In this document: positions 2,559 through 64,000 of the stretch, in pieces
Numbering within the stretch: the stretch's first letter is position 1
Layout: every line of letters starts with the position of its first letter
Assembly: GCA_032718475.1 (NCBI GenBank)
Contig: JAUCBJ010000527.1
Span: forward strand, 1-64,000
DNA: 64,000 nt
Direction: 5' to 3'
Source: Nemertoderma westbladi
Taxonomy: Eukaryota > Animalia > Xenacoelomorpha
Notes under the pieces: model-generated
The model's database searches: none
What the model was told of the DNA's origin: nothing
Seen by the model: only the letters and a program-made list of their open reading frames with translations
Program-made: the position numbers and the translations under genes

Positions 2559-2596
<38 letters not shown>

Positions 2597-12700: not shown

Positions 12701-14971
12701 ATTTGGGCCTTCCAACAGGTAATCGTTTAAGCATTTTCCGTCGGTCTTTGCCGATGCATCGACTACCATCCTCAGTTTACCTTTCTTTGGGTCTAATGCT
12801 ACGTGGAGTGGCAGGTAGTATGTCCTGTCAGTGTTCGGTTCGTCGACCGGTAACTCCACGGCCCATCCCTTCTTGACGTACTTCTTGATCGTTTTGTGAA
12901 TGTACTCGTTCTTCTCGGGGCTCCGTTGTAGTGTTTGTTTCAGCTTTCGGAGTCTCGTGAGTACCATCCCTCTGTTATCGGGTAGCGGTATCTTCGGTAG
13001 TTTCCATACCATTCCTATTGTATACCGCCCCTCATCACACCTCATCGATTCCTCCACGCTCTGTAGAGCCTGTTTGTCTTCTACCGAGGTCCCGACCCCG
13101 GTCTCTTTCAGTCCCTCAAAGTCTTGCCTGAGCAGTCTTTTAAGCTGCTCCTCTGCTCCCTCATCACCCATTTCCTGCATTGTTCCCGCGAACATGCATC
13201 CTGATGTCTCCGACATCCTGAATGGTATCTTGCTCTTAATTGGACCACTCAGCGTCCACCCGAATGGCGTTAATATGGCCACCGGGTCGCTCTGCTTGTC
13301 TTCGCCGAAGACCGTTTGCATTCTCTCGTGGGCTGTTGGGCAGTCCATGCCTACTATGATGGATACCTTCCTAACGTCCACGTCTGGGATTGAGAAGTCA
13401 ATGTTGTCCAGGAATTTGTATTGCTCGACCTCGATGTTGGTTGGCCGCCTGGCATTGATGTTAATTGACTCTATTACTTGGATGGGGTCGATGGTTGCCC
13501 CATAATCGCATCCTGGTGCCACTGCTGCAATTGCGCACCGTCCTGTCCTCATCTCTAGGACCTCGTCCTTGCTAGAGATGGTTGTCACCGCCATCCTGCT
13601 TGGCCTCGTTCTCAACCCAATTTCTTCGGCTATCCATTCCTCAACTAGTGTGAAGGCAGCTCCACTATCAACCAGCATTAGTGTTGTTACTGATCGATTG
13701 CCTTCCCCGATCACTCGTACTGGTACTACTCCAAGTAGCACTGTTCCTCTCTTCTTCGCCCCTACTGTGCTCGTTGCCATCGTCTGGCCTCTCCTTTGGC
13801 CAAACATGACCGGCTTCTCTTGGCATTCCCTGGCCTTGTGTCCACTCTTTACACATCGCGAGCAGATTTTATTGCTCGACGCGTAATCTATCTGGTCTTG
13901 CCTCGGTAGCGCCTGCCAGTACCTGCAGTTCATGGTTTTATGAAGCGCATTTGCGTGTAACTGGCATTTGCTCTTTGGGTCGTAGCCCTCTTTATACAAT
14001 GCGTTGCGTATCGCAGTTATGTTTGTACCAAAGTCCCTACTATTCTTATTGACTGGGTTTGATCTACTGGACGTACTGGGGTTATGTTTATTCATGTTGT
14101 TATTGTTCCCCTGTCCGTCCCTTGATGTTGTCTTATCTTCGCCTGTCTGTGGACTTGCAGTCCCCTGCGTCGCTGCATATGGCAATGATTGCCTGAGTCT
14201 CGGTAACGCGTTCGATGTATTGTGCTCTGGTTTGGGCCTGTAATGATCTGTCTTTGGTCCCTTTCCCAGGCTATCTTCACTATAGACTGGGTCCGTTATT
14301 AGTTCAGCCTCGTAATTTAAGAAGTTTGACATTTCTTCTAAACCTGGTTCCGCACCCTTCTTGTCTCGGGTGGAGAAAGCGACCTTCCTCCATTTGTTGC
14401 GCAGCCAGCTCGGTAGTGCCTGCGCTATCGTGGTGATGTTATTGGACGCGTTGAGTTCGTATGGCGCGTCTAGCGTCTTCAGCACGATCAGCGCCTTCTC
14501 GACTTTGTTAGCAAACGTCTTAATGCTAACGGGATTATCCTGTAGGCCACCCGATGTTATGCCTCTCAGCGTCTGCCTGATGATCTTGGCCGGGTGCCCG
14601 TATTCCCTATCCAGTGCCCGCCATGCTGTCGTGAAGCCGCCCTCTATTCCCTGGTATTGCCTCACGATATCGTATGCTGGGCCTCCCGTGTACACTTGTA
14701 GATACTTTAGGCACTCCGCCTGCGTCAAGTTTTTTGTTAGTATTTCGTTACTATACATTCGCCGAAACTGTAAGTATTCTTCCGGCCTGCTCCCATCGAA
14801 TTTGAACGGTTCCACGGGTGGTAATTCGATCCTCGTTTTCAACGCATCGATCAACGTGGCCATCCCCATTGCCTGCGCTTCTAATGGATTCGACGGGTGC
14901 TGTATAGTTTCCCTTGTCTGGTGCGGTTCGTCCGTCCTATTTCTTGATCTTCTCTGACTCGGATATGTCAT
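9761..14971 (-). CDS. BEL/Pao Gag-Pol polyprotein (Gag, Zn knuckles, aspartic protease, RT, RNase H, integrase)
   Basis: FDGSRPEEY Gag; CSRCVKSGHKAREC; LVDSGA; YYLPLH, DIEGMFNQV, FYVDDG; YDPLG; FSDAS, PKLEL, WTDS, NPADLLSR; H..HGG..CQTC, GVDMFGP, SDNGTNF, VERLV; LTPSHFL and W-RW-EYLPTL C-terminus. Confidence 0.97.
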   Translation of the reverse strand: MTYPSQRRSRNRTDEPHQTRETIQHPSNPLEAQAMGMATLIDALKTRIELPPVEPFKFDGSRPEEYLQFRRMYSNEILTKNLTQAECLKYLQVYTGGPAYDIVRQYQGIEGGFTTAWRALDREYGHPAKIIRQTLRGITSGGLQDNPVSIKTFANKVEKALIVLKTLDAPYELNASNNITTIAQALPSWLRNKWRKVAFSTRDKKGAEPGLEEMSNFLNYEAELITDPVYSEDSLGKGPKTDHYRPKPEHNTSNALPRLRQSLPYAATQGTASPQTGEDKTTSRDGQGNNNNMNKHNPSTSSRSNPVNKNSRDFGTNITAIRNALYKEGYDPKSKCQLHANALHKTMNCRYWQALPRQDQIDYASSNKICSRCVKSGHKARECQEKPVMFGQRRGQTMATSTVGAKKRGTVLLGVVPVRVIGEGNRSVTTLMLVDSGAAFTLVEEWIAEEIGLRTRPSRMAVTTISSKDEVLEMRTGRCAIAAVAPGCDYGATIDPIQVIESININARRPTNIEVEQYKFLDNIDFSIPDVDVRKVSIIVGMDCPTAHERMQTVFGEDKQSDPVAILTPFGWTLSGPIKSKIPFRMSETSGCMFAGTMQEMGDEGAEEQLKRLLRQDFEGLKETGVGTSVEDKQALQSVEESMRCDEGRYTIGMVWKLPKIPLPDNRGMVLTRLRKLKQTLQRSPEKNEYIHKTIKKYVKKGWAVELPVDEPNTDRTYYLPLHVALDPKKGKLRMVVDASAKTDGKCLNDYLLEGPNIYNSGIEVLLRFRNGKHAFTCDIEGMFNQVRVTEEDSDSQRFLWYNGEEEPPIIPAYKMVVQNMGAKSSSFTTTMAVRDTVKGKEDRYSSRAVDMIRRGFYVDDGMESGNTVEEILETGREVRDILKGSGFNLTKFQSSSEEFIREIEDKKPESTMDNPTTAKGQDMAIKRTESQQKALGIVWDRKTDELKYQLSQEGADTHSKRGYVSYIARIYDPLGLASPLLVTGKQILKRVYKLKDEWDVEVPEDIRKQWSKWIGDLERMGTYNMPRVYFPDGNMTNLDLHMFSDASLEAYGAALYLVQREGPHKPRLAFSKAKSTPPDSASVPKLELTAARLGVRATAYLVDTIPNIVETHYWTDSMVVLGWLHNEKTRYPIFVANRVDEIRASTELERWHYCPTDENPADLLSRGVERHTFLKKEVLWQHGPQFLSDREAWPPMRKVDPGSEVVSEGEEGDSEGEEIYSQMVREIRDVQPGRELCDNPTDRLLSYSSSWYKTKKLVAYWRAFGNFLAGVGKDKKTRITIDLEGAAKAVIRYEQRKNYGDEVERLGNQQHLRRDSELITLSPQLNEDGILVMNSRVGYNNSIVVPPKPIIIPTGSPIVHQIIWDSHKSILHGGTNRTLTEIRRTYWVKQLRKKVKAVVGQCQTCRRAKKERAVQEMAPLPASRVRQHDPPFTHCGVDMFGPIKIKVMRHTEKRYGIIFVCNNTRAVGIELAQDATASAFINALERFRDRKGGTIAVIYSDNGTNFVGAESEMAEALDILEGEEVRAAMRRRQVKWERRTPYAPHTLGCVERLVGSSKRLMTKLMNTHMVTEDVLRTVLAKCEGIINSRPLYPENDDPESLDVLTPSHFLMERPATIDMRGVDPDDIHSRQSWKVAKAISAEYWRRWVEEYLPTLHKRSKWRKPNRELREGDLVIVTDDTIINNQWRLARVVGTYSDEDGRVRSVEVRIGGKIGAKDRKTYRRAVGKCCLLEGAP

Positions 14972-17900
14972 CGGGGGTAGCGGCCCCCTCCATATGTCTG
15001 TATCACACGACCTGTTTTCATCTAGGGGTCTCGTTGTTCTTGTTCCTGTCGGGGTATATTGTTGATATCGTGATGGGGGAATGTCACCCTGTCCCCCCCC
15101 CCACCGGTATGTCTGGTACCGGGGTTGATGTTAGTATGTTGGGGCCCATACACCTATCCGCAATAATTCCCCCCTCCCCTGGGTATATGTTATGTCCCTG
15201 CATGCTGTAGTCATACTGCTGTGCTGGTACCGGTATAGGCCTATCAGCTTCTGGCCTACTCGCCGGTATGTATTCCGCGACTTCCGGGTTTAATCCCGTT
15301 GTCCGCGCTATCCTATCGCCTACATTGCCTCTCTCAGTATGGCCTACGGTATGTGCAGTAAGACCTACAGTATGCCCTACAGTCTGCATGTGTTGCTCGG
15401 GATCGAAGTTTATTCTTCTCGAATAATCCTCCCCGCGGCTACCGTATTATCGATCGGTAGGTATATTCCGTCGGAAAGTTTCTCTTCGACCCCCCTCTCT
15501 ACTGTTCTCTTCTTCGTACCGGTACATCGCGTACCCCTCCCTCGGCGTGTAATGCATCTCATCGGATCGCATCCCTCCGGGGCGACGGCAATCTCCCGGA
15601 GTCCGACCCCACTGACTCTCCGTTCTCATCTCGACTACCGACGGCTCGCTGTCCGTCCTCGCTCTTCTATCGTTTGCGGCGATACTTCTACTACTCTCTT
15701 CCTCCCTTCTCCTATCAGTGGAATATTCCCGCTCACGAGATCTCTCGTCGACCTCCCGGTTAAACCCCACTGTTCTTCTTTCCTCCTCTGATCGGGCTCG
15801 ACGCTCCGTCTGCCCTCTCGCGACGTCAATCTGTCTTTCTCTGCTCGATCGCACGCCGCTGGGGATACTCGCAATCCCCTATTACTTTCCGTCGCCGGTT
15901 GTTGCGGTTTACCTTGTTCGGCCCTCGCATTATCCGCTGACGGCTGTGGGACACTCTCTGCCCCCCCCCCTCTCGCCGCTAACTCTCTGTTGTGGGGCCC
16001 TCGTAGCCCCCCCCCCCCCCACTCGCTACATCTAACTTCGCTACCTCTCTCCCCGCTATTATATGTCTCTCTAGTCGACACATCAACCCTACCACAGTCG
16101 GGTCTATTCACCCCCGCCTCTCCCTCTGCTATTGCGTGGCCTTCCAGGCCCTCTACTCCCTGCCTACCAACTACGCGGCCTACCAGGCCCTCTGCCCCCT
16201 GTCTACTAACTACGTGGCCTACCAGGCCCTCTGCTCCCTGTCTACTAACTACGTGGCCTACCAGGCCCTCTGCTCCCTGGTTACGTAGGCCCGACGTGTC
16301 TACACTAATAACACCCATATTGGAAACGGAATTAATTTGCTCGCCCAAAACAAAATCGTTTGTATTACTCTGGGCGGCCACGTTATCCGAATTATTTTGT
16401 AAATTCGGATTTAGGTCATTATTTAAATTATTCGAATTATTTTGCGTGATCGCGTTATTTAAATTATTTTGTAGGTTCGAATTTGGATTATTATTTTGAT
16501 TATTTGAATTATTTTGCGTAACTACATCAATATTAGAATTATCTCCTACATTAACACTAGGATTGTTCTGATTTAAATTTAAATTACTACCACTAGGTAA
16601 AGTATTTCCTGCAATAAAGGTTTGATTAGTGTTGTCCCATACGGTATTATCAATATTAACAACGCCTACTGTACCATCATTACTATTACCCCCCCCGCCC
16701 GTACGGTCACACCAGTTTTGGGTCTGTCGTGCGGTCCCTGTCAGTGGGGCATTAATAAATGTATCTACGGCCCTCGGCTCCTCAAAAATACTCGAGCCGG
16801 CCCCGCTTTCAGACACTCCTGCCCGCGCCCGTTCCAAATCGCGCGCGTGTACAGCTGTATACCCTAGGAGTTTCTCTCGCTGTTTCTCTAACTCTATTCG
16901 GCCACTCTCCACTCTTGTTACTTTCTCGCTAGACTCCCGTTCTCTCTGCTCGACCAATTCCATCTCTCTCACAATCCCCTCTCTTCTTCTCGCCTTACGC
17001 TCTTTGCGTTCACTTTCCTCTCTCGCCTCACGCTCCCTGCGTTCACTTTCCTCTCTCGCCTCACGCTCCCTGCGTTCACTTTCCTCTCTCGCCTCACGCT
17101 CCCTGCGTTCCGCCTCGCGTTTCTCGCGTTCCGCTTCGCGTTCCCTCTCTTCCCTCAACTCTATCTCGTCATACTCCCTAAGGTTCCTCGCGGCCCTTTC
17201 GCCCCTTTCCCTTAACTCTTTAATCGACACCGCTTCCCTCTCTAGCATCACTCTCCCCTCCTCTAGCCGTCTACCTACTTCTCTATTAGCTTCCACCGCT
17301 AGATTGAGACGGTGTCTGGCCTCTATCTCTCTCACCCGTCTTTCTTTTACGGAGGATGTAACAGACTTATCGGTTGTAACGGATTCCCTCCGCCTTCCCG
17401 ACCCACTGGCTCTCCCCCGCTTCCCGGAACTTTCTCCGACCGACGAGGCCGAATCCTCGGAGTTAACCTCGGATTCGCCCCCTTCGAGTCCCCTCCAACC
17501 CACCGGTTTTATTCCCCGGGCATCGACTGAGTATGGCCCTATGTACACTGGCCCTACACTAGGTTCCATACCCCCACACTCCCATAGTTCCAATAGTTCC
17601 ACGGCAATCTCATGTGCCCTCGTTTCGGCTAGCTCTCTCTGCTCAAAGTGTATTAGATAACTAAAGTGTTTATCCGACTCACCTAGTCGCTTCCTCAGTC
17701 TCACCTCGTCTACCTTCGCCCCTTTCTTCTTGGCATCGTTTAGTATCCTCCGGGTTGCGATGTAAGCGCGTCGGAGTCGCTCAGAAACCCCGACGTCCTC
17801 GTCGCCGACTTCTCCCCTCTCCCTCCGGGTTCGACGTCGTACCGGCGGCTCCACCGTCGCCGTTCCGGTGGGCCGTCCGTCGCCCTCGGCCTGTAGCTGG

Positions 17901-18247
17901 CCGGCGACATCGGTACCGATCTTTCCTCCGTCTCTTCACGTTCGGCGTCGCACCGTCGGCCCCACCGTCGCCGTTTCGGTGGGCCGCTCGTCGCCCTCGG
18001 CCGGTAGCTGGCCGGCGACATCGGCGCGCCGTTCTCCTTCCCGTGTCGACTCCGCTCTTTCTCCCTCCTTCTCGCTCTCCCTTTCTCTTGGCTCGGCTTC
18101 GAGCTCCAGGCCCCCCTCATCCTCGGCTTCCGGTCCGCCCACTATCGATGGCTCCGGCGTCGCGGGCCTGTATCGTTTGGTCGCGGCCTCGCGGATCGTT
18201 AGGTCTTCGTCCGGGGTCCGCGGTGGTGTCTCGCCCGAATCGCTCAT
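14972..18247 (-). pseudogene. Disrupted ~1100-codon N-terminal extension of Gag (E/R coiled-coil repeats, Asn-rich tract, 14-aa repeats)
   Basis: 17936-18247 and 15635-17854 are one frame split by TGA; 15447-15854 and 15084-15389 are one frame split by TAA; frame changes fall at poly-C tracts (~15961-16020, 15093-15102); the pol frame is open from that last tract to 14971. Confidence 0.75.
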
Positions 18248-18352
18248 CTCTCTTCTGCAGATTTCGGTGGCTAGTGTTTATAGAGTTTGTCTAGGGCGGC
18301 AGCTGGCTTTAGTTACTGAGTTTAGCTGGGGAAGCAGCACCGATTTAGTTAC

Positions 18353-48682: not shown

Positions 48683-49787
48683 TTTTTTTTATAAAAGGTT
48701 TAGGTACATAGTGTATCTAAACCTACTGTGTATACTATATTAAACACCTAAAACATGGTGTAGACCTACAAATTATCACATCCTACAGCACATAGTGCTC
48801 GGAATAGACACAAAAAACCAAGTCAAGTCTCTCATTTAATGAATTCCGTGAACTATAGTTCCAATGTAAGTAACCCCCTGCTGGTGTGTTACTGTGTTTC
48901 ATAATGTTCCTTATGTATAACAGTTTAAGTAATCAATAACACTTTGTTAACTAAAGCTGGATAATAATTGTGCTGCATGACGATTGTGCTCGACCTCTGC
49001 TTGAGTTTCTTATCATGGCTGCTCAGTGTGATACCAAACTTATTAATGAAGTAGTAATGTAAGTAGTATGCTAAACAACGTGATTGAGACAGCGTCTGCC
49101 ATAGTCTACCATGTTAAAGAATTTGCCGAACGGCTCTTGCCCCGCCTACTTACTATGATTACTATTGTTGCCCCACCCACTTACTATGGTTACCATGGTT
49201 ACCATTGTGCATATGTAACATATGTCACCGCTGTGTATATATGTGACATACGCGGTATAAGACTAGTTTGCAGGCGGAAGTAATTTAATTAATTCGTGTC
49301 TACCGGTCGGCGTTTGACCTTGAACCGCAATAGGTAAAACCCAATATAGTAAGTGGGTTGCAGACGTTTGTTATTATAAAAGTCTTTAACATGATTTGAT
49401 TATTCTACCTATGGGGCGAGCCATGAAGTGAGTGATAGCGTCGAAGTGTGAGTGATAGCGCCGAAGTAAGGTTATGACGCAACAACTAAAAAAGGTAAAT
49501 AAACACAGACTTATGGGGGCGAGCCGTGAAGTGAGTTCTTCCTCATCCACAACATCATTACCACTACCACCATCACCCGACGTCCCCTTCATTCCTTTCC
49601 AACATTGAAAAAATGGGGCGAGCCATGAAGCGAGTGAAGCCTTAGCATATGGGCGCCATTAATGAGTTGTGGGGCGAGCTACGGCGAAGTAAGGTTATTG
49701 TATTTATAATATTATCATTATACCAACAAATTTGATTATTATACTTAAATCCATCACCATTACTATTTTAAAATTTCTTCCACCACC

Positions 49788-50228
49788 TCACCCATTTATC
49801 CCGCTATCCTCGCTATCTACATCCACCACATTATTGCCATTACCTCCGCCACCGCCTAACATCTCTAACATTCCCATCAACATTTCAATCCTTTCTTCCA
49901 TTGCCTTCTCCCGTGCGCACCTCTCAGCCTCCTTTGCTCTCCTATCCCCCTCAGCCGCCATCTCCAACTCCCAATCTTCCCCCCACACACTCTTGTTTTT
50001 CTTCGCCTCTTCCTCCATATAATACTTTTTTTCTATCACCTCCCACGCATTCCTAGGCTCTAACAATCTCTGCACTCGCGCTTCTTCTTTTTCTGTCAAA
50101 TACATTGCTACCAGTATCATTTCATTCTCATTATCATCTCCATCCTCCACAATCTCATCATCCTCGATACTCTCATCATCCTCTACAATCTCATCCACCA
50201 CAATCTCATCTTCTCTAACCACATCCAT
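49788..50228 (-). CDS. Highly acidic 146-aa hypothetical protein, copy 1
   Basis: ATG start, D/E-rich repeats (DEIVED), upstream TATAAATA on the minus strand. Confidence 0.65.
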   Translation of the reverse strand: MDVVREDEIVVDEIVEDDESIEDDEIVEDGDDNENEMILVAMYLTEKEEARVQRLLEPRNAWEVIEKKYYMEEEAKKNKSVWGEDWELEMAAEGDRRAKEAERCAREKAMEERIEMLMGMLEMLGGGGGNGNNVVDVDSEDSGING

Positions 50229-50420
50229 GTATAATATGTATAATAATAATAATAATAAATACCGGTAAATGCGTGTATAATAAATAAATAACTAAATCTA
50301 TATAACATTTTTATTTCAACCGATAATTCATTAAACCCACAGATAATAATTTAACCGTTACCATGACACCAACCAGAAACATGGTCTATTTATATAATAA
50401 AGTTTCTACCGCTCGAAGAT

Positions 50421-51710
50421 TCACACTGAATGTTTATTCTTCTTTATTTGAGGTTGCCCATTAGTCTCGATTTCATTGAAAATGTCTTCACCATCATCCG
50501 TATCATTGACGATGTCCTCTTCAAAGTCGCTGATATCTTCATACTCATAGCTAGGTGTTTTATTCACGATGAGATCAATTTTTCGCTTAAGCGCTTGTTC
50601 TTTCATGGCTTTAGGTGTTTTCATCTTCATCTGAGCGCTCACACCCCCAACGAGGGTATCAATATCCTTATAATCATTCTTTTTTTCAGTGCTGTCTACC
50701 TGTTCATTTTCTGGAATCGCGGGCAACCAGATTTTTTTCTCATCCATTTTCTTAGCAGCGACTTTTACTGCTTCGGACGTCTTCAGCTGAGTAGCATTGT
50801 TCGGCATTTCCACTTTCATTAGTTCCTCGTCCGTTAATTCATCAATCGCAGCCTCAACAACTAACTTTTTAATCGGTAGAAACTCACACCCAGACGGAAT
50901 ATCGTGGTCCGCGTACTTCTGTAATTGCTTAATTATCTCGACATTTGCGTTGTTTCGAGGGATGAAAATAACCTTGGTGTCGAAGTTGTGGGACAAATAT
51001 ATCCCGTTTTTGTTAACGGTTGATGTGTACCTCATACTAACCTCATCGATATTCTCGTTAACATTCTTATCTATGTTAAAGTCGAGCAAACAGAATTCAT
51101 CCGCTCTGAGATTCAACCCATCGTAATATATAACACCCTTTCGCTGTCTACCTATATCATCCACTTCCCAAACGCCGACAAATCGTTGCCCTTCAAAGTC
51201 GTAGATATATCCAATGTACCCACAATCTTCGAACTCCATAAAATTCTCATCATGAATTTCCTTCTTTTTTGGTTCAATACGGGAAAGAACGACTTTGCCG
51301 TAGAAGCTTTGTAAGTAATCTATAATTTTTCGCGAGATAAAAATTGATGCGCCGTTTTTCCCAATGCGTAAGTACGCATGATTTATCGGTGTTATAAGCA
51401 AATTGCCTCAGGTGTATTCCTTGTAATATTCAATGGCTATTTTATTATAATTGAGGAAGTCAAACAGGAATCTTATGTTCTGGTAAGTAAGACTTACCGA
51501 TTCTTGTACGACGTTGCGTCCTTTGGTATCACCCCAACGGTTGAATCGAACGTATTTCCCGTTAAATGCTTTTATTTCTATTCCTTCCCCCAAACACTCG
51601 AGGCCCCACACACTCTTACCTGTAATCACCGATACGTATGGGGCGGGCACACTATCAGTAGAGCTACCGCTTAATGACATCATTTTTGGTTGTGATGGTT
51701 TCACAGATTC
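50421..51710 (-). CDS. PC4-like ssDNA-binding-domain protein with acidic/basic tail, split by one in-frame TGA at 51408-51410, copy 1
   Basis: YDFEGQRFVGVWEVD...DGLNLRADEF and IKAFNGKYVRFNRW...SVSLTYQNI resemble PC4 folds; reads EYT*GNLLITP in one frame; exact start codon uncertain. Confidence 0.55.
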
Positions 51711-52352
51711 CATCAACAAATTTTGCGAAATATTAATAATTAAGTGTAAAAATAAAATACAATAATATCGCGCTATACAATGTGCGAAAAATATGATAAT
51801 GAATGAATTAACCAGAATGACATGATAATGAATGAATGAATTAACCAGAATGACAAAATAAAGTATTTTACAGACGTATTTATAATATAATGATGGGCTA
51901 TCGGGAAAACGGGTATATTTTAACCACTCAACCGGATTAATCGCTATTGTCGTGAGAGAATTTTTCTGAAAAACTTCCTATAAATTTCAAGGGAAATATT
52001 TATTTACGCTTAAATTGGTTGACGTAAGTGGTGACAGCTTTGCAGCGGCGATTAATGCGGCCGGCCGATAGAAATTTCTATAGACACACCCCCAAATTTC
52101 TACAGAATATTACTCACGGTTAAATTGATTGACGTCAACTGTATTAACTGTGTAGCTTCTTAGAAGTTTCATAATTTTAAGCATGAGCGAATTTAATTTA
52201 ATGTCGGGATCGCAAACTTTTCTCTCACGACAGATATTTTTCTGTAATCACATTTATTACTAAAAACGAATGATTGTGCCGCGCGAGCGGCGTTTTAAAG
52301 ACACACCCATTATAAATATACCCATTGGTCAAAATATTATTGATTAAGCAAC

Positions 52353-52727
52353 ATGGCAATACTGGGGCAGCTTGAGTCTATAGATAAGATCATTTTTTCA
52401 AATATATTATTTATTGTTACCTTTCTTTTAGGACTTTTTTTAGGTAAAATACGGCATAATAAAAAAATGTTTCCAATAATACAAGCTGAAAATAGTTACC
52501 GCGGTCCTAATTCAATTATTCCGATTAAAATTGAATTGTTAAGCCCAGCAGCTCGGGCACCTGTATGCGGTTCATATAGCCCAGCTGGGATTGACATATA
52601 TAGCGCCGTGAATAGAACAATAGAGCCGCACTCACGGATGTTAATTGAGACCACCTCACCCATTTATCCCGCTATCCTCGCTATCTACATCCACCACATT
52701 ATTGCCATTACCTCCGCCACCGCCTAA
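52353..52727 (+). pseudogene. Truncated dUTPase-like copy made by the duplication junction
   Basis: Identical to 55221 onward up to MLIET, then reads into the antisense strand of the acidic gene. Confidence 0.9.
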
Positions 52728-53096
52728 CATCTCTAACATTCCCATCAACATTTCAATCCTTTCTTCCATTGCCTTCTCCCGTGCGCACCTCTCAGCCTCC
52801 TTTGCTCTCCTATCCCCCTCAGCCGCCATCTCCAACTCCCAATCTTCCCCCCACACACTCTTGTTTTTCTTCGCCTCTTCCTCCATATAATACTTTTTTT
52901 CTATCACCTCCCACGCATTCCTAGGCTCTAACAATCTCTGCACTCGCGCTTCTTCTTTTTCTGTCAAATACATTGCTACCAGTATCATTTCATTCTCATT
53001 ATCATCTCCATCCTCCACAATCTCATCATCCTCGATACTCTCATCATCCTCTACAATCTCATCCACCACAATCTCATCTTCTCTAACCACATCCAT
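52656..53096 (-). CDS. Highly acidic 146-aa hypothetical protein, copy 2
   Basis: Identical translation to 49788-50228. Confidence 0.65.
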   Translation of the reverse strand: MDVVREDEIVVDEIVEDDESIEDDEIVEDGDDNENEMILVAMYLTEKEEARVQRLLEPRNAWEVIEKKYYMEEEAKKNKSVWGEDWELEMAAEGDRRAKEAERCAREKAMEERIEMLMGMLEMLGGGGGNGNNVVDVDSEDSGING

Positions 53097-53288
53097 GTAT
53101 AATATGTATAATAATAATAATAATAAATACCGGTAAATGCGTGTATAATAAATAAATAACTAAATCTATATAACATTTTTATTTCAACCGATAATTCATT
53201 AAACCCACAGATAATAATTTAACCGTTACCATGACACCAACCAGAAACATGGTCTATTTATATAATAAAGTTTCTACCGCTCGAAGAT

Positions 53289-54578
53289 TCACACTGAATG
53301 TTTATTCTTCTTTATTTGAGGTTGCCCATTAGTCTCGATTTCATTGAAAATGTCTTCACCATCATCCGTATCATTGACGATGTCCTCTTCAAAGTCGCTG
53401 ATATCTTCATACTCATAGCTAGGTGTTTTATTCACGATGAGATCAATTTTTCGCTTAAGCGCTTGTTCTTTCATGGCTTTAGGTGTTTTCATCTTCATCT
53501 GAGCGCTCACACCCCCAACGAGGGTATCAATATCCTTATAATCATTCTTTTTTTCAGTGCTGTCTACCTGTTCATTTTCTGGAATCGCGGGCAACCAGAT
53601 TTTTTTCTCATCCATTTTCTTAGCAGCGACTTTTACTGCTTCGGACGTCTTCAGCTGAGTAGCATTGTTCGGCATTTCCACTTTCATTAGTTCCTCGTCC
53701 GTTAATTCATCAATCGCAGCCTCAACAACTAACTTTTTAATCGGTAGAAACTCACACCCAGACGGAATATCGTGGTCCGCGTACTTCTGTAATTGCTTAA
53801 TTATCTCGACATTTGCGTTGTTTCGAGGGATGAAAATAACCTTGGTGTCGAAGTTGTGGGACAAATATATCCCGTTTTTGTTAACGGTTGATGTGTACCT
53901 CATACTAACCTCATCGATATTCTCGTTAACATTCTTATCTATGTTAAAGTCGAGCAAACAGAATTCATCCGCTCTGAGATTCAACCCATCGTAATATATA
54001 ACACCCTTTCGCTGTCTACCTATATCATCCACTTCCCAAACGCCGACAAATCGTTGCCCTTCAAAGTCGTAGATATATCCAATGTACCCACAATCTTCGA
54101 ACTCCATAAAATTCTCATCATGAATTTCCTTCTTTTTTGGTTCAATACGGGAAAGAACGACTTTGCCGTAGAAGCTTTGTAAGTAATCTATAATTTTTCG
54201 CGAGATAAAAATTGATGCGCCGTTTTTCCCAATGCGTAAGTACGCATGATTTATCGGTGTTATAAGCAAATTGCCTCAGGTGTATTCCTTGTAATATTCA
54301 ATGGCTATTTTATTATAATTGAGGAAGTCAAACAGGAATCTTATGTTCTGGTAAGTAAGACTTACCGATTCTTGTACGACGTTGCGTCCTTTGGTATCAC
54401 CCCAACGGTTGAATCGAACGTATTTCCCGTTAAATGCTTTTATTTCTATTCCTTCCCCCAAACACTCGAGGCCCCACACACTCTTACCTGTAATCACCGA
54501 TACGTATGGGGCGGGCACACTATCAGTAGAGCTACCGCTTAATGACATCATTTTTGGTTGTGATGGTTTCACAGATTC
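53289..54578 (-). CDS. PC4-like protein with in-frame TGA at 54276-54278, copy 2
   Basis: Identical translation to copy 1. Confidence 0.55.
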
Positions 54579-54587
54579 CATCAACAA

Positions 54588-55220
54588 ATTTTGCGAAATA
54601 TTAATAATTAAGTGTAAAAATAAAATACAATAATATCGCGCTATACAATGTGCGAAAAATATGATAATGAATGAATTAACCAGAATGACATGATAATGAA
54701 TGAATGAATTAACCAGAATGACAAAATAAAGTATTTTACAGACGTATTTATAATATAATGATGGGCTATCGGGAAAACGGGTATATTTTAACCACTCAAC
54801 CGGATTAATCGCTATTGTCGTGAGAGAATTTTTCTGAAAAACTTCCTATAAATTTCAAGGGAAATATTTATTTACGCTTAAATTGGTTGACGTAAGTGGT
54901 GACAGCTTTGCAGCGGCGATTAATGCGGCCGGCCGATAGAAATTTCTATAGACACACCCCCAAATTTCTACAGAATATTACTCACGGTTAAATTGATTGA
55001 CGTCAACTGTATTAACTGTGTAGCTTCTTAGAAGTTTCATAATTTTAAGCATGAGCGAATTTAATTTAATGTCGGGATCGCAAACTTTTCTCTCACGACA
55101 GATATTTTTCTGTAATCACATTTATTACTAAAAACGAATGATTGTGCCGCGCGAGCGGCGTTTTAAAGACACACCCATTATAAATATACCCATTGGTCAA
55201 AATATTATTGATTAAGCAAC
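54588..55220. promoter_or_regulatory. Divergent promoter region (copy 1 at 51720-52352)
   Basis: TATAAATA on minus (54745-54752) and plus (55179-55186); TGACGT at 54888 and TGACGTCA at 54998; 13-bp inverted pair at 54816-54828 and 55088-55100. Confidence 0.7.
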
Positions 55221-55853
55221 ATGGCAATACTGGGGCAGCTTGAGTCTATAGATAAGATCATTTTTTCAAATATATTATTTATTGTTACCTTTCTTTTAGG
55301 ACTTTTTTTAGGTAAAATACGGCATAATAAAAAAATGTTTCCAATAATACAAGCTGAAAATAGTTACCGCGGTCCTAATTCAATTATTCCGATTAAAATT
55401 GAATTGTTAAGCCCAGCAGCTCGGGCACCTGTATGCGGTTCATATAGCCCAGCTGGGATTGACATATATAGCGCCGTGAATAGAACAATAGAGCCGCACT
55501 CACGGATGTTAATTGAGACGGGTGTTAAAATATATTTACCCGCCAATTATTTTGGAAGAATTACGCCGACTTTTAGCTTGACAAAAATTGGCATTGATGT
55601 TGCAGAATGTGCGGTCGATTCCAGCGTCGCACGCGGTAATATAGATCAACTTGTAATTATATTGATTAACAACACATCTAAGGAATACGTTGTAACATCC
55701 GGTGATAAAATATGCCAGCTTATATGCCAACAATGTAATGCGGCAATACTCTACGTTTCTAATATTTATTCGGATGATTATTTTGGGGTTTTACCGACGA
55801 ATTTAACGCCGTATGGGGAAGAGATTAATTCGGCATTTTACCGCGCATATTAA
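55221..55853 (+). CDS. Trimeric dUTPase-like protein with an N-terminal hydrophobic segment, probably catalytically altered
   Basis: AGIDIYSA (motif 1), IETGVKIYLP..YFGRI, GDKICQLI (motif 4); motifs 2, 3 and 5 degenerate. Confidence 0.85.
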   Translation: MAILGQLESIDKIIFSNILFIVTFLLGLFLGKIRHNKKMFPIIQAENSYRGPNSIIPIKIELLSPAARAPVCGSYSPAGIDIYSAVNRTIEPHSRMLIETGVKIYLPANYFGRITPTFSLTKIGIDVAECAVDSSVARGNIDQLVIILINNTSKEYVVTSGDKICQLICQQCNAAILYVSNIYSDDYFGVLPTNLTPYGEEINSAFYRAY

Positions 55854-56146: not shown

Positions 56147-59100
56147 ATGATGGAGATTAATTGCGTTTTTTGCAGTTGTACTATACTTAAGAAAAATTAT
56201 TTACGGCATTTACGCACACATTTCGATGGGTATGTTTGCGATAATTGTAATTGCCGAACTACTTCTGAAAGAATAGCAATATTTCACAGTAATAGATGTT
56301 GTGGGTTGTCTCGTCCGAATTACACCTACTGTGGTTACACGCTATCCTGCCCGACATGCTCTGATGATTTTGAAAACTTCGATTCATATATCGAACATAG
56401 TTGCCATCAAAACCACTACAATTCCCGCAAACGCAAACATAACCAAAAACAATCAGAACCGACATTTCAACCGGATCTCAACGTTGGTTTGCCTGTAAGC
56501 ATCACAAACAGCTCAGATACATCCAACGAAGGTTTTCATCTCTCAACAACATGCCACGAATCCCGCGTTCAGGAATATACCCATAATGTGTCATCTAATG
56601 AGATGTATCCAGATGTACCGAATTATTTAAATTATATGGGGTTATATGCTTCACGTGCTTTTAACACGACGGCATCGGTTTTTATTGATATGTTTTATAA
56701 AGTGTGGTTAATTGCTTCGGTGATAATGGAACGCGACGATGCTAATTATACTTTACAAGAAGAATTCCATTTTACTTCGATCGGTACAGATAATTATATT
56801 GAAAATAGCCCAGATTTTGACGAATGGTACTACACAGTCATTTCCCATATCGGTGAAAAAATATCGCAATTTATTAGGCGGGGTAGCGGCTGGAAACTTG
56901 TAACTCTATCGCGCATCAAACTTACTATTGCGTCATACTTGCGATCGGCATATCGTTTTGGACATAGTGGCGATGCCAACCAATCAATCCCAACGAAATT
57001 AAAAAATAAACATTCTGTAATAAATGTACCGTGTAATGAAGGTGAATGTTTTAAGTGGGCGGTCCTGACAGCAAAATTTTCAAAACATATATCGGATGAT
57101 CACACACTGCGCCATGTTTCACGCCAAAGTTCTTATAATCAGTATTTAGGGTTTTTTAATTTAAGCGAATTAGACTCTACCCTATCATGGAAACTAAATA
57201 TTCTAAAGTTTGAAAAAAATAATCCAAATTATTTAATAAATTTATTGTATTTTGATAGAAGTAGTGAAAAAATTTCCTTTCTACGACAACCAAGTGCTAA
57301 AAAAGCTGAAGGTAAAAGATTGCTAAATTTATTGCTTATTGAACGTCAAAATTTAACCTCAACAAATCACATCGTTGGGGTTTCTAACTTAAATAGATTA
57401 TTTAATGGTTGTGGGGAAGGCAATAGCAACGATCATTGTCATCGTTGTGAGCGGTGTATTCGCGGTTTCTACAGTCCAAATGCGTTAGAACGCCATAGAT
57501 TATGGTGTTGGCAAGGCGGGCGCCAAATAGAGGAGATGCCATCTAAACTGAATTTACGCTTTACTAATTACTATAAGTCTGTGAGCACACCTTTCATAGT
57601 ATATATGGATTTCGAAGTGGTACTAGCCCCAACAAATAATGTAAAAAAATATTATATAGCCGAACATCTCCCGTCGGCTGTTTCATATTTGATTGTCTCC
57701 AATGGTGAATTAATTAACCCCCCAAATTATTTTTTGTCTACATTTAGGCAAAATATCGATAATAACTCGGTACAGAATTTTATCGATAGTCTGGTTTTTG
57801 ATTTATTTAAGTGTTATGAATGGTCTACTTTTAACACACACCACCCCAAACACCTGGATCACACACAATACCAAGCTTATATGCGTACCACAAATTGCTT
57901 TAATTGTAAATCATTTTTCCGGAAAGATATAAATCCAAGTGTGATGCATCACAACCATTACAATGGGGCTTTCATTGGTGCGGCGTGTATTTCCTGTAAT
58001 AAACAATTAAGCGTTAAACGTCACCTATTCCCAGTTGTCTGTCATAATTTTTTTTTTTATGATTCACATTTAATTTTACAAAAAGGGTTTGCCGGTAGTA
58101 AATATAAAAATTGGAACATTGAAACCATTGCAAAAAATACTGAAAGATATATCTCACTCCGCATCGATATTCCAACGTCAGAAGCACTTAACGTGCTTGG
58201 TTATGCTATTCCAGAAAAGGACGTAAGAGGGCTCCCAACCAGCAAATCAATAACTATACAGTTTATTGATTCATTCGCATTTATGGGATTTTCCCTTTCT
58301 GCTTTGGCTGGGTTTTTGGCAAAAGATGTGTCAGATTTAACAACCGTTATTCCGCACACCGTGAAGCAAATGAGAAAATTATATCCAAATGTTACCGACG
58401 AAATTTTACGTCGTAAGTCAGTTTTTCCTTACGAATATGTCGATTCCTTAAGTAAATTGGAGGATACTAAATTACCGCATCCAAAAGAGTTTTACAGTGA
58501 ATTAACATTATCATCTATTAGCCCCGAAGAATATACATTTGCACATCTTTCGTGGGAGCAATTTCAATGTAAGACACTTTTTGATTATTTGGAAGCTTAC
58601 TTACATCTTGACGTTTTGCTGCTAGCCGATATTTTTGAAAATTTTCGCGCATATTGTACTAAACATTATTCGCTTGAGGTGTCGAACTATTACACGATGG
58701 CGGGGGTTAGTTGGGACGCGGCTTTGAGATTGTCCAAATCACATATTCGTCTACTTGCAGACCATGAAATGTATTTAACATTCGAAAATTCCATTAGGGG
58801 TGGGGTTTCTTACACCAACCTTCATATGGCAAATGCGAATATACCAGGCACAGAAACATACGACCCTAATAAACCTGAAGCTCATTTATATAATTTAGAT
58901 TTCAACAGTTTATATAGCGGTTCTTTGTCGGAGAAACTTCCTTATTCTGACTTTGAATGGTTGGATGTTGATAGTGTCGATATCATGAGTCTGGAAATTG
59001 ACGATATATTTGGATACTTCGCAATTGTAGACCTTGAATACCCAATGTCTATTCATGATGCCACAGCTGAGCTTCCATTTGCACCGGAGCATATTAAACT

Positions 59101-60217
59101 CGATAGTAGGTATCTCAGCCCGCACATGAAAAGTCTTTGGCGACATTATAATGGTGATAAAATTTTCAATAGCCCAGCAAAAAAATTGATGTTAACCCAA
59201 TTTGATAAGTATGAGTACGGCGTGCATCTAAAATTATTGCGCTTTTATATTCATCATGGTATGCGTTTGATTAAAGTTCATAAACTTATTAGATTTAAGC
59301 AAGGTTACATTTTTAAGGATTTTATTGAATATAACACACAGCTAAGAAAAATTGCGCGCAATGACTTTTATGATAAGTTTCACAAAGGAACAAATAACGC
59401 GCTTTTCGGGAAAAGCATGGAGAATATACGGGACCGTGTCTCATTTCGCTTATGTAATTCAATCGAGAAATGTGACTTATTATTATCCAAGCCGAATCAC
59501 GAAAATTTAATTATGTTCACTGATTCATTATCAGGTCACGTCCTATCTAAGGCTGCGGTTTGTTTGCATAAACCTATTTTTTTAGGCCAAGCTGTGTTGG
59601 ACTTGTCAAAGTTAGATTACTACACTTTTTTCTACGATAAGTTAAAGCCCATGGAAGCCGAATTAAATTGTAGTATAAATTTGCTAGGTGGGGACACGGA
59701 TTCTTTTTTTTTACAGTGTGTTGGTTTATCCCAACACCAATTTTTATCTGCGTTACAATCAAAAAAAGTTTTAGACTGTTCAAATTACCCTATTACGCAT
59801 CCGTTGTATACAGTAGAACAGAAAGGGAAATATAGATATTTAAAGGATGAAGGGAAGTCTATCCCGTTTGACCAGGTTATTTTACTTAGACCAAAATGTT
59901 ATAGCTTTCGTGGGGGGTCAGTTCCAAAACGTGTCGCTAAAGGCGTAGGAAAAATGGTTATAAAAAAGAAACTCTCCCACGAATCATATTTAAAAGTATA
60001 TAACGAGGTTAGCGAGCATTACGAATACAGTCAAAGGTTTCAATCTAATTTACATAAAATATACACCGTTTCACAAAGAAAAAAATCGCTAACACTGTGG
60101 GAAGATAAAAGGTACTACACATCGACTAATGAAAGTCTACCTTACGGTCATTATAAAACACATTTGGATCGTAAAGCGCCTGCCCCTAAGCTTTATATGC
60201 CGCCCATTATAGAATAG
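56147..60217 (+). CDS. Protein-primed family B DNA polymerase (Polinton type) with N-terminal Zn fingers and an inserted endonuclease VII/HNH-like module
   Basis: GSGWK, CFKWAV, YMDFE, HNFFFYDSHLI, FIDSFAFM, FPYEY, DVLLLADIFENFR, SIRGGVS, DFNSLY, KGTNNALFGK, GDTDS, LRPKCY, AKGV, DKRY; CFNC...HHNHYNG...CISCN; first ATG at 56147. Confidence 0.95.
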   Translation: MMEINCVFCSCTILKKNYLRHLRTHFDGYVCDNCNCRTTSERIAIFHSNRCCGLSRPNYTYCGYTLSCPTCSDDFENFDSYIEHSCHQNHYNSRKRKHNQKQSEPTFQPDLNVGLPVSITNSSDTSNEGFHLSTTCHESRVQEYTHNVSSNEMYPDVPNYLNYMGLYASRAFNTTASVFIDMFYKVWLIASVIMERDDANYTLQEEFHFTSIGTDNYIENSPDFDEWYYTVISHIGEKISQFIRRGSGWKLVTLSRIKLTIASYLRSAYRFGHSGDANQSIPTKLKNKHSVINVPCNEGECFKWAVLTAKFSKHISDDHTLRHVSRQSSYNQYLGFFNLSELDSTLSWKLNILKFEKNNPNYLINLLYFDRSSEKISFLRQPSAKKAEGKRLLNLLLIERQNLTSTNHIVGVSNLNRLFNGCGEGNSNDHCHRCERCIRGFYSPNALERHRLWCWQGGRQIEEMPSKLNLRFTNYYKSVSTPFIVYMDFEVVLAPTNNVKKYYIAEHLPSAVSYLIVSNGELINPPNYFLSTFRQNIDNNSVQNFIDSLVFDLFKCYEWSTFNTHHPKHLDHTQYQAYMRTTNCFNCKSFFRKDINPSVMHHNHYNGAFIGAACISCNKQLSVKRHLFPVVCHNFFFYDSHLILQKGFAGSKYKNWNIETIAKNTERYISLRIDIPTSEALNVLGYAIPEKDVRGLPTSKSITIQFIDSFAFMGFSLSALAGFLAKDVSDLTTVIPHTVKQMRKLYPNVTDEILRRKSVFPYEYVDSLSKLEDTKLPHPKEFYSELTLSSISPEEYTFAHLSWEQFQCKTLFDYLEAYLHLDVLLLADIFENFRAYCTKHYSLEVSNYYTMAGVSWDAALRLSKSHIRLLADHEMYLTFENSIRGGVSYTNLHMANANIPGTETYDPNKPEAHLYNLDFNSLYSGSLSEKLPYSDFEWLDVDSVDIMSLEIDDIFGYFAIVDLEYPMSIHDATAELPFAPEHIKLDSRYLSPHMKSLWRHYNGDKIFNSPAKKLMLTQFDKYEYGVHLKLLRFYIHHGMRLIKVHKLIRFKQGYIFKDFIEYNTQLRKIARNDFYDKFHKGTNNALFGKSMENIRDRVSFRLCNSIEKCDLLLSKPNHENLIMFTDSLSGHVLSKAAVCLHKPIFLGQAVLDLSKLDYYTFFYDKLKPMEAELNCSINLLGGDTDSFFLQCVGLSQHQFLSALQSKKVLDCSNYPITHPLYTVEQKGKYRYLKDEGKSIPFDQVILLRPKCYSFRGGSVPKRVAKGVGKMVIKKKLSHESYLKVYNEVSEHYEYSQRFQSNLHKIYTVSQRKKSLTLWEDKRYYTSTNESLPYGHYKTHLDRKAPAPKLYMPPIIE

Positions 60218-60226
60218 CGGATTGTG

Positions 60227-60649
60227 ATGTCTTTTAGTATTGTCAACAGTAATATAAGTTTGAGGTTGGGTGATGGGTGCATATCATTCGATGTGCTGGC
60301 TAAACGAATTCGAAATGGAAAACTCATCTTAAAGCCTTACCAATATATCGCCAAAATTTGCGGATGGACGTGTCTCTTTTTCCCGAGCGGTAAGGTCACT
60401 GTACTCGGTAAATCACCTAAAATAAAAAAAATTATTAAGTATATATATAAGCATACTGATTATAAACTAACTTTTATTTCAATCAATAGCCAAACTTATA
60501 TTATTAACAATCTAGACATAGACTATAGCAAATTAATGAAAACGGTTGGGTTTCATTTTTTAGATAATTATTATAATGTGGAGGTGAAATATGAGCCGGA
60601 GATATTTAATAATATTCTTGTGCAGTTTTATCGATCAATTAGGGTCTAA
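60227..60649 (+). CDS. TATA-binding-protein-like gene, truncated in the second repeat
   Basis: SIVN...TCLFFPSGKVTVLG (cf. TBP TALIFSSGKMVCTG) and YEPEIF (cf. YEPELF); starts 9 nt after the PolB stop. Confidence 0.8.
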   Translation: MSFSIVNSNISLRLGDGCISFDVLAKRIRNGKLILKPYQYIAKICGWTCLFFPSGKVTVLGKSPKIKKIIKYIYKHTDYKLTFISINSQTYIINNLDIDYSKLMKTVGFHFLDNYYNVEVKYEPEIFNNILVQFYRSIRV

Positions 60650-60784
60650 TTAGCCTAATTGGGAGGTGTCACCCAGACAGTCTGGCGCCAATGACACCCA
60701 ATGACACCCTATGGGTGATAATAGGGTGTCATATGACACCCAATGGGTGTCAGTGAGGTCTAACTTTCGCAAAGCCGTGCAAAC

Positions 60785-61245
60785 CCCTACTACAAGAGTC
60801 TACTACGACGTTTCATTATCTGGATACTAGGAGATAATGAATGGACCTACACAGATCGGCTCAAATCACTTAAACATACTCCCCCTTTCTCTCTACCTAC
60901 AACTCCTAGATTTGATGACGCTGTCGAAGATTATCGCTGGGAAATGCGACATCAACTGGGAAGAACACCTTAAACTCAACAAACCATCAAACCAAAATAC
61001 TCGTTCAAGTGATCGGATTTTATCTAATGTTGCGCGGCCGAAAAAATGCAAATCAGAACAAAATTTTTGATTCCGAATACCTTACATTGCAAATGCATTA
61101 CCAAAGCGAATTTTACAAACAATGTAGGACTTAAATCTCGTCTGATCGACTTATTTTGGAGATATTTCATAAACCCTACTCAAGTGATATTCACTGTAGC
61201 TGGTCAGTGTGCTTCAGCTGCGTCTTGATGAACTGTAGAAACATA
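60785..61245 (+). pseudogene. LINE ORF2 3'-end fragment
   Basis: LNILPLSLYLQLLDLMTLSKII...NTRS...EQNF. Confidence 0.65.
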
Positions 61246-61398
61246 ACTCTCATCTCGATGATTTATACCCATAGATAATGACTTATATTGTATACTGCTT
61301 TATTAATTAATACAAATTTTATTTCATTAAATTTTATTGCATCTCATTTTAAATTTAATACGCCATTTTTACGACATAAAATCCGACACTTTTATTAA

Positions 61399-63006
61399 GG
61401 GGGGGGTACACCCCCCCCCAGGTCAAAATTTTCATTTTTTGTTTTTTTATTTCATCTAGAGTAGAATTTAATGCGGATTTCAAATCTGGAAACGGCTTAG
61501 CGAGATCTCTTTTACTTCTCGAGTAATGGCTGGTTTTCCGTCTGTATGTCTGTCTGTCTGTCCATCGAAATATTAAAAAGGGCATAAAATAAGCAATCTG
61601 AAATATTTACTGTTAGGATTTTTCTTAAAGTCGATGTCTGTTTTAATATTTGGAATTATCTAATCACTATGTCTGTATATCAGCCTGTCTCTCAGTTTGT
61701 CTGTCTGTTTGTCTGTCTGTCTGTTTGTCAACATGTCCGTCAAATTTTAATTAATATATATTTAATAGATATTTGTGAGTTTTGTATTACATATTGAAAA
61801 GTTGTCTAATGGACTAGTTGTCTACTAGTAATAAAAAATGTGAACCATTATATAACAATAGCTAGTAATAATTATTCTGGGAAACAACCATAAACTTATT
61901 TTTTTTTAAATTCCGCAGGCTCTGAGAATAATTCACGTGCTGCGCGAAGTCTTCATGTGCAGCATGAACTTTTCATGTGCCGCGTGAAGGCTTCTCATTC
62001 TGATCAAAAAGCTTTCCGAGGTGCTCGATTAATTAACGTGCTTTATGAAGAATTTAAGTGCTACGTGAAACCTTCACCTGCTGCGCAAATGTCTCACGTG
62101 CTGCGCGAAGGTTTCACATGCTGCGCAAAGCTTAATGTTCTGTGTAAAGGCTTGTAATAAAATTATGTGGAAATTTTTATATAATTTTGAATGTTTCTTA
62201 AGGTTATCTCATTATTCCATGACTATTTATTACTAAATGACGAAATAGTATGCGATCAAATCAATACGCCAAAATGTAATTTGTTGACGTGCTGCGCGAA
62301 GTGTTTTTTGGCAAGCACTCTAAAATTATTTTAACAGGTTGTTAAAAGTGGGTAGGGGTTTTTTTGAACCAAATTTCATGAAATCCATTGAGAAATCACA
62401 AAATATGGATAGGGGATAACCAATGGGAAAAGAAAAGGAGATACCAGTACTGAAAATAGCGGGAACATTTGAAATATATTGTTCTTAAACTTTAAATGCG
62501 TTTATCTCGGAACTGTATTTTTCACATTCAAAATACTACTACTCGGCCATTTCTTAACCAATTTTTGAAATTTTTTTTTTGTTTGATTTCTTTTCGGGTT
62601 TTGATCAAAAGTTATCGGTTAGAATTTTGAATTGTGCCATATTAATTTCTTGAAATTAGTTAATATCTATTAAGTAATAATTAATATTAGTTAATAATAT
62701 TTAAAAAATATTTAAGACCTAAATAAAAAATGTAACCGATAAGTTTTGTGGAGCCGAGGATGCTGATTCAGAAAAACCAAGTTTTGAAAATTTTCGCCCA
62801 AAATTGTGAGACTAGTAGTGTTTTTAGTGAAATTAACAATTTCGCTGGTGGCCGCTAGAGGGCGACGCAAATTTGAAAAAAAATTTTTTGAACCCAATCT
62901 TTGGCCATATTTTAATCCCCCGAAAGGTATAAAATATACAAAATTACACACAAGCAGAAATTATAGCCATTTGCAAAAAAGGTCCATAGGGGGGTGTACC
63001 CCCCCC
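61399..63006. mobile_element. Non-autonomous TIR transposon with TTAA target duplication (Kolobok-like)
   Basis: TTAA|GGGGGGGGTACACCCC ... GGGGTGTACCCCCCCC|TTAA; purine 5' termini; internal (GTCT)n and gtgctgcgcgaag repeats. Confidence 0.8.
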
Positions 63007-63268
63007 TTAATACGAATATATATTTCATCTTATTTTAATACACATAATTTATTTCATTCCATGAATGACAACCAGTCTTCTGACCCTTTTAACTTTTTCG
63101 TTTAATCTCATAATTAGCACGGCCTTTTTGAGACCAATTACAGTAATAATTTTAATTCGGAGTATTTTAATGTACTTTAATTAATTTTTAACTCATGATT
63201 TAAACTACGTATATGTTTTTTTATGGGGGAAACCCCATCACCATAATACTATAGTTTCCTTATAGTTA

Positions 63269-64000
63269 TCCTTTGGCACTCACTCCTTCTCTTACTCAGC
63301 ACCCATCGTTTTTAATAAAAATACCCCGTTACAACCTAGTTTCCTTTGGCACTCACTCCTTCTCTTACTCAGCACCCATCGTTTTTAATAAAAAATACCC
63401 CGTTACAACCTAGTATCCTTTGGTGCTCGCTCCTTCTCTTACTCAACACCTATCGTTTTTAATAAAAATACCCCGTTACAACCTAGTATCCTTTGGCACT
63501 CGCTCCTTCTCTTACTCAACACCTATCGTTTTTAATAAAAATACCCCGTTACAACCTAGTATCCTTTGGCGCTCGCTCTTTCTCTTACTCAACACCTGTC
63601 GTTTTTAATAAAAATACCCCGTTACAACCTAGTATCCTTTGGCGCTCACTCCTTCTCTTACTCAACACCTGTCGTTTTTAATAAAAATACCCCGTTACAA
63701 CCTAGTATCCTTTGGCACTCGCTCCTTTTCTTACTCAACACCTGTCGTTTTTAATAAAAATACCCCGTTACAACCTAGTATCCTTTGGCACTCGCTCCTT
63801 CTCTTACTCAACACTTATCGTTTTTAATAAAAATACCCCATTACAACCTAGTATCCTTTGGCGCTCGCTCCTTCTCTTACTCAACACTTATCGTTTTTAA
63901 TAAAAATACCCCGTTACAACCTAGTATCCTTTGGCACTCGCTCCTTCTCTTACTCAACACCTATCGTTTTTAATAAAAATACCCCGTTACAACCTAGTAT
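63269..64000. repeat. 73-bp satellite, ~10 copies, running off the window end
   Basis: Unit tcctttggcactcgctccttctcttactcaacacctatcgtttttaataaaaataccccgttacaacctagta; ORF calls recur every 73 bp. Confidence 0.97.

Follow-up and report, generated by a model that had tools for sequence, protein, structure and literature searches.

A divergent TBP-fold protein encoded beside PolB in a Maverick/Polinton element

Mavericks/Polintons (alpha adintovirus or pPolB2-like; PMC8097293, PMC10748475) are the closest described systems to the element investigated here, sharing with it an AGTAGT terminus, a protein-primed DNA polymerase (PolB) and the presence in many copies. The relatives of our element also carry an rve integrase, an ATPase, an adenain protease and putative capsids. 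On the other hand, the standard Maverick gene set is devoid of the TATA-binding protein (TBP) and dUTPase, and no match to TBP or TATA was found in the main texts of PMC8097293, PMC10748475, PMC4028283 and 10.64898/2026.06.19.733378. In the literature searched for TBP in Polintons, Mavericks or adintoviruses, the only trace found was a TBP label in the legend to Fig. 5 by Starrett et al. (2021, PMC8502044), referring to MELD viruses with adintovirus-like PolB; figures and bioRxiv supplements could hold more. Like the gene described below, it marks a TBP-like gene carried by a midsize linear dsDNA element whose PolB is of Polinton type. However, that record is a one-line figure label belonging to the section on non-animal datasets, with the carrier element unnamed, no analysis in the text and no match to TBP or TATA in the supplement text, whereas here we describe a TBP family of about 120 proteins with a defined residue pattern, in one PolB clade. 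A TBP label in such elements is already known, with no prior analysis found in the literature searched.

Among viral TBPs, ORF24 of KSHV (a beta/gamma-herpesvirus TBP) uses a polar TBP face to recognize late promoters with TATTWAA (PMC12529657). It resembles the element TBP in combining the TBP fold with a DNA face of increased polarity, and in the reliance on host Pol II and on a variant AT-rich box, two traits shown for ORF24 and only presumed for the element TBP. In contrast, ORF24 is a large multidomain protein of a six-protein complex, with all four intercalating Phe and without the TFIIB glutamates, whereas the element TBP amounts to the bare core, about 180 aa long, with one Phe lost and the glutamates retained. 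The element TBP does not have the attributes of a herpesvirus-type pre-initiation complex, in which a large viral TBP has a Pol II-binding domain and five partner proteins, and the comparison is an analogy only. Cellular TBP/TRF and nucleocytovirus TBPs (PF00352) share with it the two-repeat saddle and the stirrup motif, but identity is about 20%, and in the element protein the first Phe is replaced and the first stirrup altered. Nucleocytoviruses pair their TBP with their own RNA polymerase; no RNA polymerase gene was seen in the TBP-bearing elements.

The window (the whole stretch of 64,000 nucleotides analyzed) contains the left part of one such element, with the following features:
49062..49700, plus strand: left terminus of a Maverick/Polinton, likely its left terminal inverted repeat; begins with AGTAGT, inner edge approximate.
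49782..55517, no strand: exact tandem duplication of a 2868-bp unit (copies 49782-52649 and 52650-55517; 0 mismatches over 2870 nt).
52656..53096, minus strand: acidic ORF, 146 aa (duplicate at 49788-50228); TATAAATA 166 nt upstream.
53289..54107, minus strand: 272-aa ORF with a predicted folded N-terminal part and an acidic tail.
54276..54581, minus strand: 101-aa ORF, probably the "PC4-like" protein of the initial annotation.
55221..55853, plus strand: dUTPase (Pfam PF00692, E 6e-16); TATAAATA 42 nt upstream.
56147..60217, plus strand: PolB, 1356 aa; stop 9 nt before the TBP ORF.
60227..60649, plus strand: TBP ORF, 140 codons; begins 9 nt past the PolB stop at 60217.
60227..60633, plus strand: 5' three-quarters of the element TBP gene, residues 1-135.
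60634..60793, no strand: piece of a host repeat of high copy number, unrelated to the element; depth changes sharply and contigs have loose ends at 60633-60635 and 60777-60793.

We placed on the region the contigs from four out of six public runs listed, which cover three samples of one organism. In run X1 single element contigs have depths of 2538-3345 vs 118 in the flank, and in run X2 up to 10176-16155 vs about 280, which suggests tens of copies, depth being a rough guide only. Flank-depth contigs leave (X1) or stop (X2) at 49061, and AGTAGT comes next, so the junction 49061|49062 carries one of the two Maverick termini sought, (AGT)2 or (AG)3; (AGT)2 is the commonest end motif of vertebrate Mavericks (PMC8097293). 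Protein-primed PolB, another Maverick/Polinton hallmark considered, is present as well. The summed depth over 48951-49852 is about 2-4x that of the interior, which fits a terminal repeat at the left end. Mavericks have such inverted repeats in pairs, with a 6-bp target-site duplication; the right end of this element lies outside the window. At the same junction the X1 flank-depth contig leaves the window with 346 unplaced letters, while that of X2 stops there. An element-free allele is likely at this site, and so a young polymorphic insertion.

From the left, the element consists of the likely terminal repeat, three minus-strand ORFs, dUTPase, PolB and TBP. All three ORFs on the minus strand fall within the 2868-bp unit, along with the bidirectional intergenic region and the beginning (5' part) of the dUTPase gene. 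The two copies of the unit overlap by 2 nt at the junction and depth per unit is about half of the interior, suggesting that most element copies carry a single unit; the duplication in the window is either a recent event or an assembly artefact. The 101-aa and 272-aa ORFs lie in one frame, separated by a single TGA (54276-54278, also 51408-51410) with the frame otherwise open, and represent either one interrupted gene or a case of stop read-through. In the flanks, a Bel/Pao-type LTR retrotransposon whose gag and pol frames are long (9761-18277, minus strand; label by eye) and other repeats were found, which would fit an AT-rich animal genome. A 73-bp tandem satellite with about 10 copies and 95% matches occupies 63237-64000, and a perfect 24-nt inverted pair (61393/62989) may bound a non-autonomous DNA element.

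The initial annotation had described an intronless ORF 9 nt past the PolB stop, with both TBP repeat signatures and great divergence from cellular TBP. The ORF is intronless, and its coordinates and motifs were confirmed (SIVN at residue 4, TCLFFPSGKVTVLG at 48-61, IDY at 98 and YEPEIF at 122-127), as was the divergence, with about 20% identity to plant TBP. Searched alone, the protein scores 15.4 bits (E 0.016) with the Pfam TBP profile (PF00352), which has a gathering cut-off of 22.9. Its closest PDB sequence match is a microsporidian TBP (E 0.015), and its top ESM Atlas matches are TBP clusters at 0.90, with low recognition. A word search gave 12 candidates, none of them homologous, phmmer over 1.84 billion representatives revealed no homologue, and folding from the single sequence gave an unusable model (pLDDT 35). 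Against the profile of 90 relatives, with the window protein excluded, it reaches 42.9 bits, the best of 1000 shuffles scoring 5.9. A profile search recovered 121 proteins from 1415 candidates, and among the 120 matches listed nearly all are unnamed metagenome proteins, with one plant TBP. The element TBP family has about 120 proteins, composed of the bare core with a median of 181 aa, and the Pfam TBP cut-off was passed by all 5 intact relatives tested (46-63 bits vs 22.9).

An AlphaFold model of the window TBP built from a 91-row alignment has pLDDT 81 and pTM 0.73. Foldseek retrieved 41 PDB matches with E <= 0.001, all listed rows down to rank 43 being TBPs, and TBPs were matched in BFVD too. 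In VIA, 38 TBP rows ranked first, yeast TBP having Z 9.5 (2.4 A over 97 residues) and the best non-TBP fold Z 6.2. TM-scores to TBPs are only about 0.55 and the lobe-to-lobe fit is poor, as expected since the protein is cut. The two-repeat saddle is present, with the second repeat incomplete owing to the cut. The TBP fold foreseen in the initial annotation was thus recovered in the predicted structure, which together with the sequence profile confirms the ORF at 60227-60649 as encoding a divergent protein of predicted TBP fold.

Residues 1-135 comprise the complete first repeat and the second one up to the strand after the stirrup. The truncation noticed earlier at "~60635" is real, but its exact position is 60633|60634, where the gene is joined to a piece of another high-copy repeat (60635-60793) and about 42 residues (median) are missing. 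Since the junction lies there, the final few codons and the stop (60647-60649) are foreign DNA. A 332-nt contig with depth 3345 shows 0 differences over 60377-60633 (257 nt) and then 75 divergent letters; because this element-depth contig runs past 60633, the window copy is cut while other copies of the same organism continue. Untruncated copies, whose recovery had been proposed, were reached to this extent: the contig continues for those 75 letters, and relatives carry an intact TBP. The two final strands and the final helix, including the fourth Phe, are missing from the window TBP, which is likely a dead, non-functional fragment. A hidden downstream exon was considered and rejected, since no fitting second F-x-x-G-K exists on the plus strand of 60634-64000 (two distant chance matches were found) and the junction is visible in the contigs at the DNA level. 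This copy has lost whatever lay to the right of TBP, and the virion genes of the element are not in the window. A tblastn search of the window with the genes of the related locus L032 revealed no integrase, ATPase, protease or capsid gene, as its truncation would predict.

For the window PolB, 652 homologues were found among 7986 scored candidates. A quick tree of 50 rows (the window, the top 30 matches, 13 picked lower matches and 6 viral loci) places it within a 23-row clade with SH-aLRT 100, marked by the motif GGDTDSFF. Endonuclease_7 is matched by 21 of the 22 aligned members and DNA_pol_B_2 by 6, while the window PolB matches neither. Scans with the motif gave 2, 113 and 41 loci, which with 14 earlier ones make 170, and 83 of these encode PolB (71 motif-selected, 12 outgroup). 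Neither the window PolB nor plant TBP, used as queries for related loci, recovered relatives from viral contigs, and the PolB alignment search returned outgroup elements only.

A TBP-like ORF was found on 8 of the 71 motif-selected PolB loci, many of which are too short to be informative. Considering the sequence available downstream, TBP is present in 8 of 23 loci with at least 1 kb, 6 of 7 with at least 3 kb and all 5 with at least 5 kb, vs none of the 12 outgroup loci (0/5 with at least 5 kb downstream). The TBP-bearing loci correspond to about six lineages, with L028/L039 and L032/L073 being close pairs. ATPase, integrase, putative capsid and protease occur together in 4 of the 8. The identities of the integrase (rve) and of the adenain-type protease were confirmed in relatives; capsid labels were given by eye, with no PDB sequence match. 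At L057 a PLA2-like ORF (1622-2122; label by eye) separates PolB and TBP, and the ATPase directly follows TBP. TBP is a regular gene of one Maverick/Polinton PolB clade.

The ORF might instead derive from a retrocopy of host TBP, now decayed, or have been captured recently and lie beside PolB by chance, and the lack of introns would agree with such an origin. Gene order would as well, since in relatives it differs from the window and TBP lies about 0.6-7 kb from PolB. However, the window TBP has 15-20% identity to six cellular or viral-contig TBPs (plant and archaeal included) and up to 31% to element relatives. Two maximum-likelihood trees, which contained no metazoan TBP, group it with the element TBPs (100/99), although its branch is very long, at 4-5 changes per site, and placing it among cellular TBPs is not rejected by the AU test (p 0.27). 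The window TBP also shares a derived Pro at the column of the first Phe with the element family, and the ORF has element depth in runs X1-X3, one of which matches it along 257 nt without a difference. Considering also the linkage to the PolB clade, the gene belongs to the element, as initially annotated, and a host origin of this kind is largely refuted and extremely improbable.

The roles of the four intercalating Phe and of the stirrup Glu follow PMC10005294 and PMC12529657, and the acidic C-terminal stirrup of TBP serves the contact with TFIIB (PMC10005294). Residue columns were mapped on the plant TBP P0219 and compared with the 90 relatives. Phe2, Phe3 and Phe4 are each present in 90/90 relatives, and the window TBP retains Phe2 (F52) and Phe3 (F127), Phe4 falling in the missing part. 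The Phe1 column is occupied by Pro in all 73 ungapped relatives and in the window TBP (P37), and a register slip of one residue would put Arg or Lys there, never Phe. The canonical four-Phe set is therefore incomplete in this family, and of the intercalating Phe whose check was suggested with the initial annotation, Phe2 and Phe3 are present, Phe4 is kept by the relatives and Phe1 is lost. The first Asn of the DNA face is retained (N7; 65/65 ungapped rows), while the register of the second is uncertain in the window TBP alignment. The column corresponding to yeast V122 has Gln in 87/90 relatives and Thr in the window TBP. Both stirrup glutamates, E123 and E125, are retained, each also in 87/90 relatives. 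The first stirrup is altered and there is no N-terminal extension. The window TBP has Asn128 where cellular TBP and 90/90 relatives have Pro, so its DNA specificity may differ again from that of the relatives.

The family-wide loss of the first Phe could also mean that the saddle plays a role other than late-gene activation, as a decoy sequestering host factors of the TFIIB family, a repressor acting on promoters of the element itself, or a DNA-bending protein acting at the termini in replication or packaging. There is a precedent in TRF2, which lost intercalating Phe and does not bind TATA (PMC10005294). The location of the gene in the PolB cassette would fit such a role, as would the lack of a common promoter box in 2 of the 3 lineages tested (see below). 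On the other hand, the DNA face keeps three Phe and its first Asn with little or no variation, which fits DNA binding in the TBP style, and virion genes are preceded by a strong box in one lineage. We consider such a role unlikely, though worth keeping in mind.

The initial annotation had pointed to uniform TATA boxes, and these are real: TATAAATA occurs 5 times in 1844 intergenic nt vs 0.87 expected (1/500 shuffles as high), and the same 5 sites, all intergenic, are the only ones across the whole unique element (22/500 shuffles). Four of them lie 42-192 nt upstream and on the correct strand of the acidic ORF, the 101-aa ORF, dUTPase and PolB; none precedes the window TBP. These boxes are canonical, and host TBP could read them. 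TGACGT sites at 54888-55005, including the CRE/ATF-type palindrome TGACGTCA at 54998, were also found in the divergent intergenic region, with mild enrichment (3 vs 0.76 expected, 21/500 shuffles).

These boxes had been taken as the signal of a three-part basal module, in which TBP would act as a general booster, assisted by an acidic activator and by a coactivator resembling PC4. Their enrichment upstream of four ORFs agrees with this, and so does a small conserved gene, PC4-like by eye, that lies beside or overlaps TBP in 6 of the 8 related loci, in another frame over the TBP 5' end:
L032:8176-8826, L073:8134-8850 and L039:1896-2561: conserved small neighbour of TBP.
L028:249-899, L089:1600-2223 and L051:4853-5611: conserved small neighbour of TBP.
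The product has a folded N-terminal part and a charged tail, and a tandem paralogue exists in four loci. However, no profile or sequence tool gave a significant PC4 (PF02229) match for the 101-aa ORF, for the 272-aa ORF, whose resemblance is by eye only, or for the neighbour family (4.6 bits at best). Cytochrome b562 matches of the 272-aa ORF were rejected as compositional. Neither window ORF significantly matches the neighbour family, and the acidic 146-aa ORF has no significant family match. A complex predicted for one relative's TBP and its conserved neighbour, run without alignments, scored 0.01, which speaks neither for nor against a contact. Moreover, TATAAATA is canonical, making an element factor unnecessary, it precedes genes to the left of TBP and not TBP itself, and the 120 nt upstream of genes in L032, L073, L051 and L090 do not contain it. 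What stands from the module is the TBP and the boxes; the PC4 identity was not confirmed, host TBP could read TATAAATA, and we regard the module as quite improbable.

A different box was found in relatives. TTAAGC lies upstream of 7/14 genes in L032 and 7/12 in L073, vs 0.4-0.7 expected (0/200 family-wise shuffles as strong), preceding the ATPase, integrase, putative capsid and penton genes. Neither locus has it before TBP, and L032, the sole locus of the two with the PolB start, does not have it before PolB. Both count as one lineage, since their capsids are 81% identical. In L051 there is no significant common box (67/200 shuffles as strong) and in L090 it is borderline (9/200), so that among the four loci tested, representing three lineages, a strong box occurs in one. 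TTAAGC or CTAAGC before window genes (2/5, chosen post hoc) is not claimed, and TATAAACA-like sites in L090 were discarded, not being the top word under dinucleotide shuffles. The position of TTAAGC, mostly before virion and integration genes, suggests a promoter factor for late genes.

We lean towards the element TBP being the element's own promoter-recognition factor, which would read a variant AT-rich box and use host TFIIB and Pol II for late genes. Direct results are the fold, the cut, the association with a single PolB clade, the pattern of residues and the box of one lineage, and the following steps are what they may imply. Host TBP would read the canonical TATAAATA boxes of early genes (dUTPase, PolB and small ORFs), and the element TBP would be produced together with or shortly after PolB. 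Its altered, more polar DNA face, with Phe1 replaced and Val changed to Gln or Thr, would then read the variant box, while the two retained stirrup glutamates would bind host TFIIB, bringing it with RNA polymerase II to the virion and integration genes.

The value of the finding lies in the TBP family, the window copy being a dead fragment. This family is a natural series with a changed DNA face and a retained TFIIB stirrup, useful for the study of TATA specificity, and the linkage to one clade together with the candidate box in relatives allows a cheap, direct test on homologues that occur intact in nature. It bears on how Mavericks activate their capsid genes, and on whether they make particles on a programme. 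Tentatively, and with less confidence than in a promoter factor as such, we suggest that it could represent the smallest viral late-transcription switch, a 180-aa TBP with one Phe lost and a lineage-private box such as TTAAGC, working with host TFIIB in an animal Maverick clade. If true, an integrating virus of 15-20 kb could control when its capsid genes are expressed while having neither an RNA polymerase nor a multi-protein complex of the herpesvirus kind.
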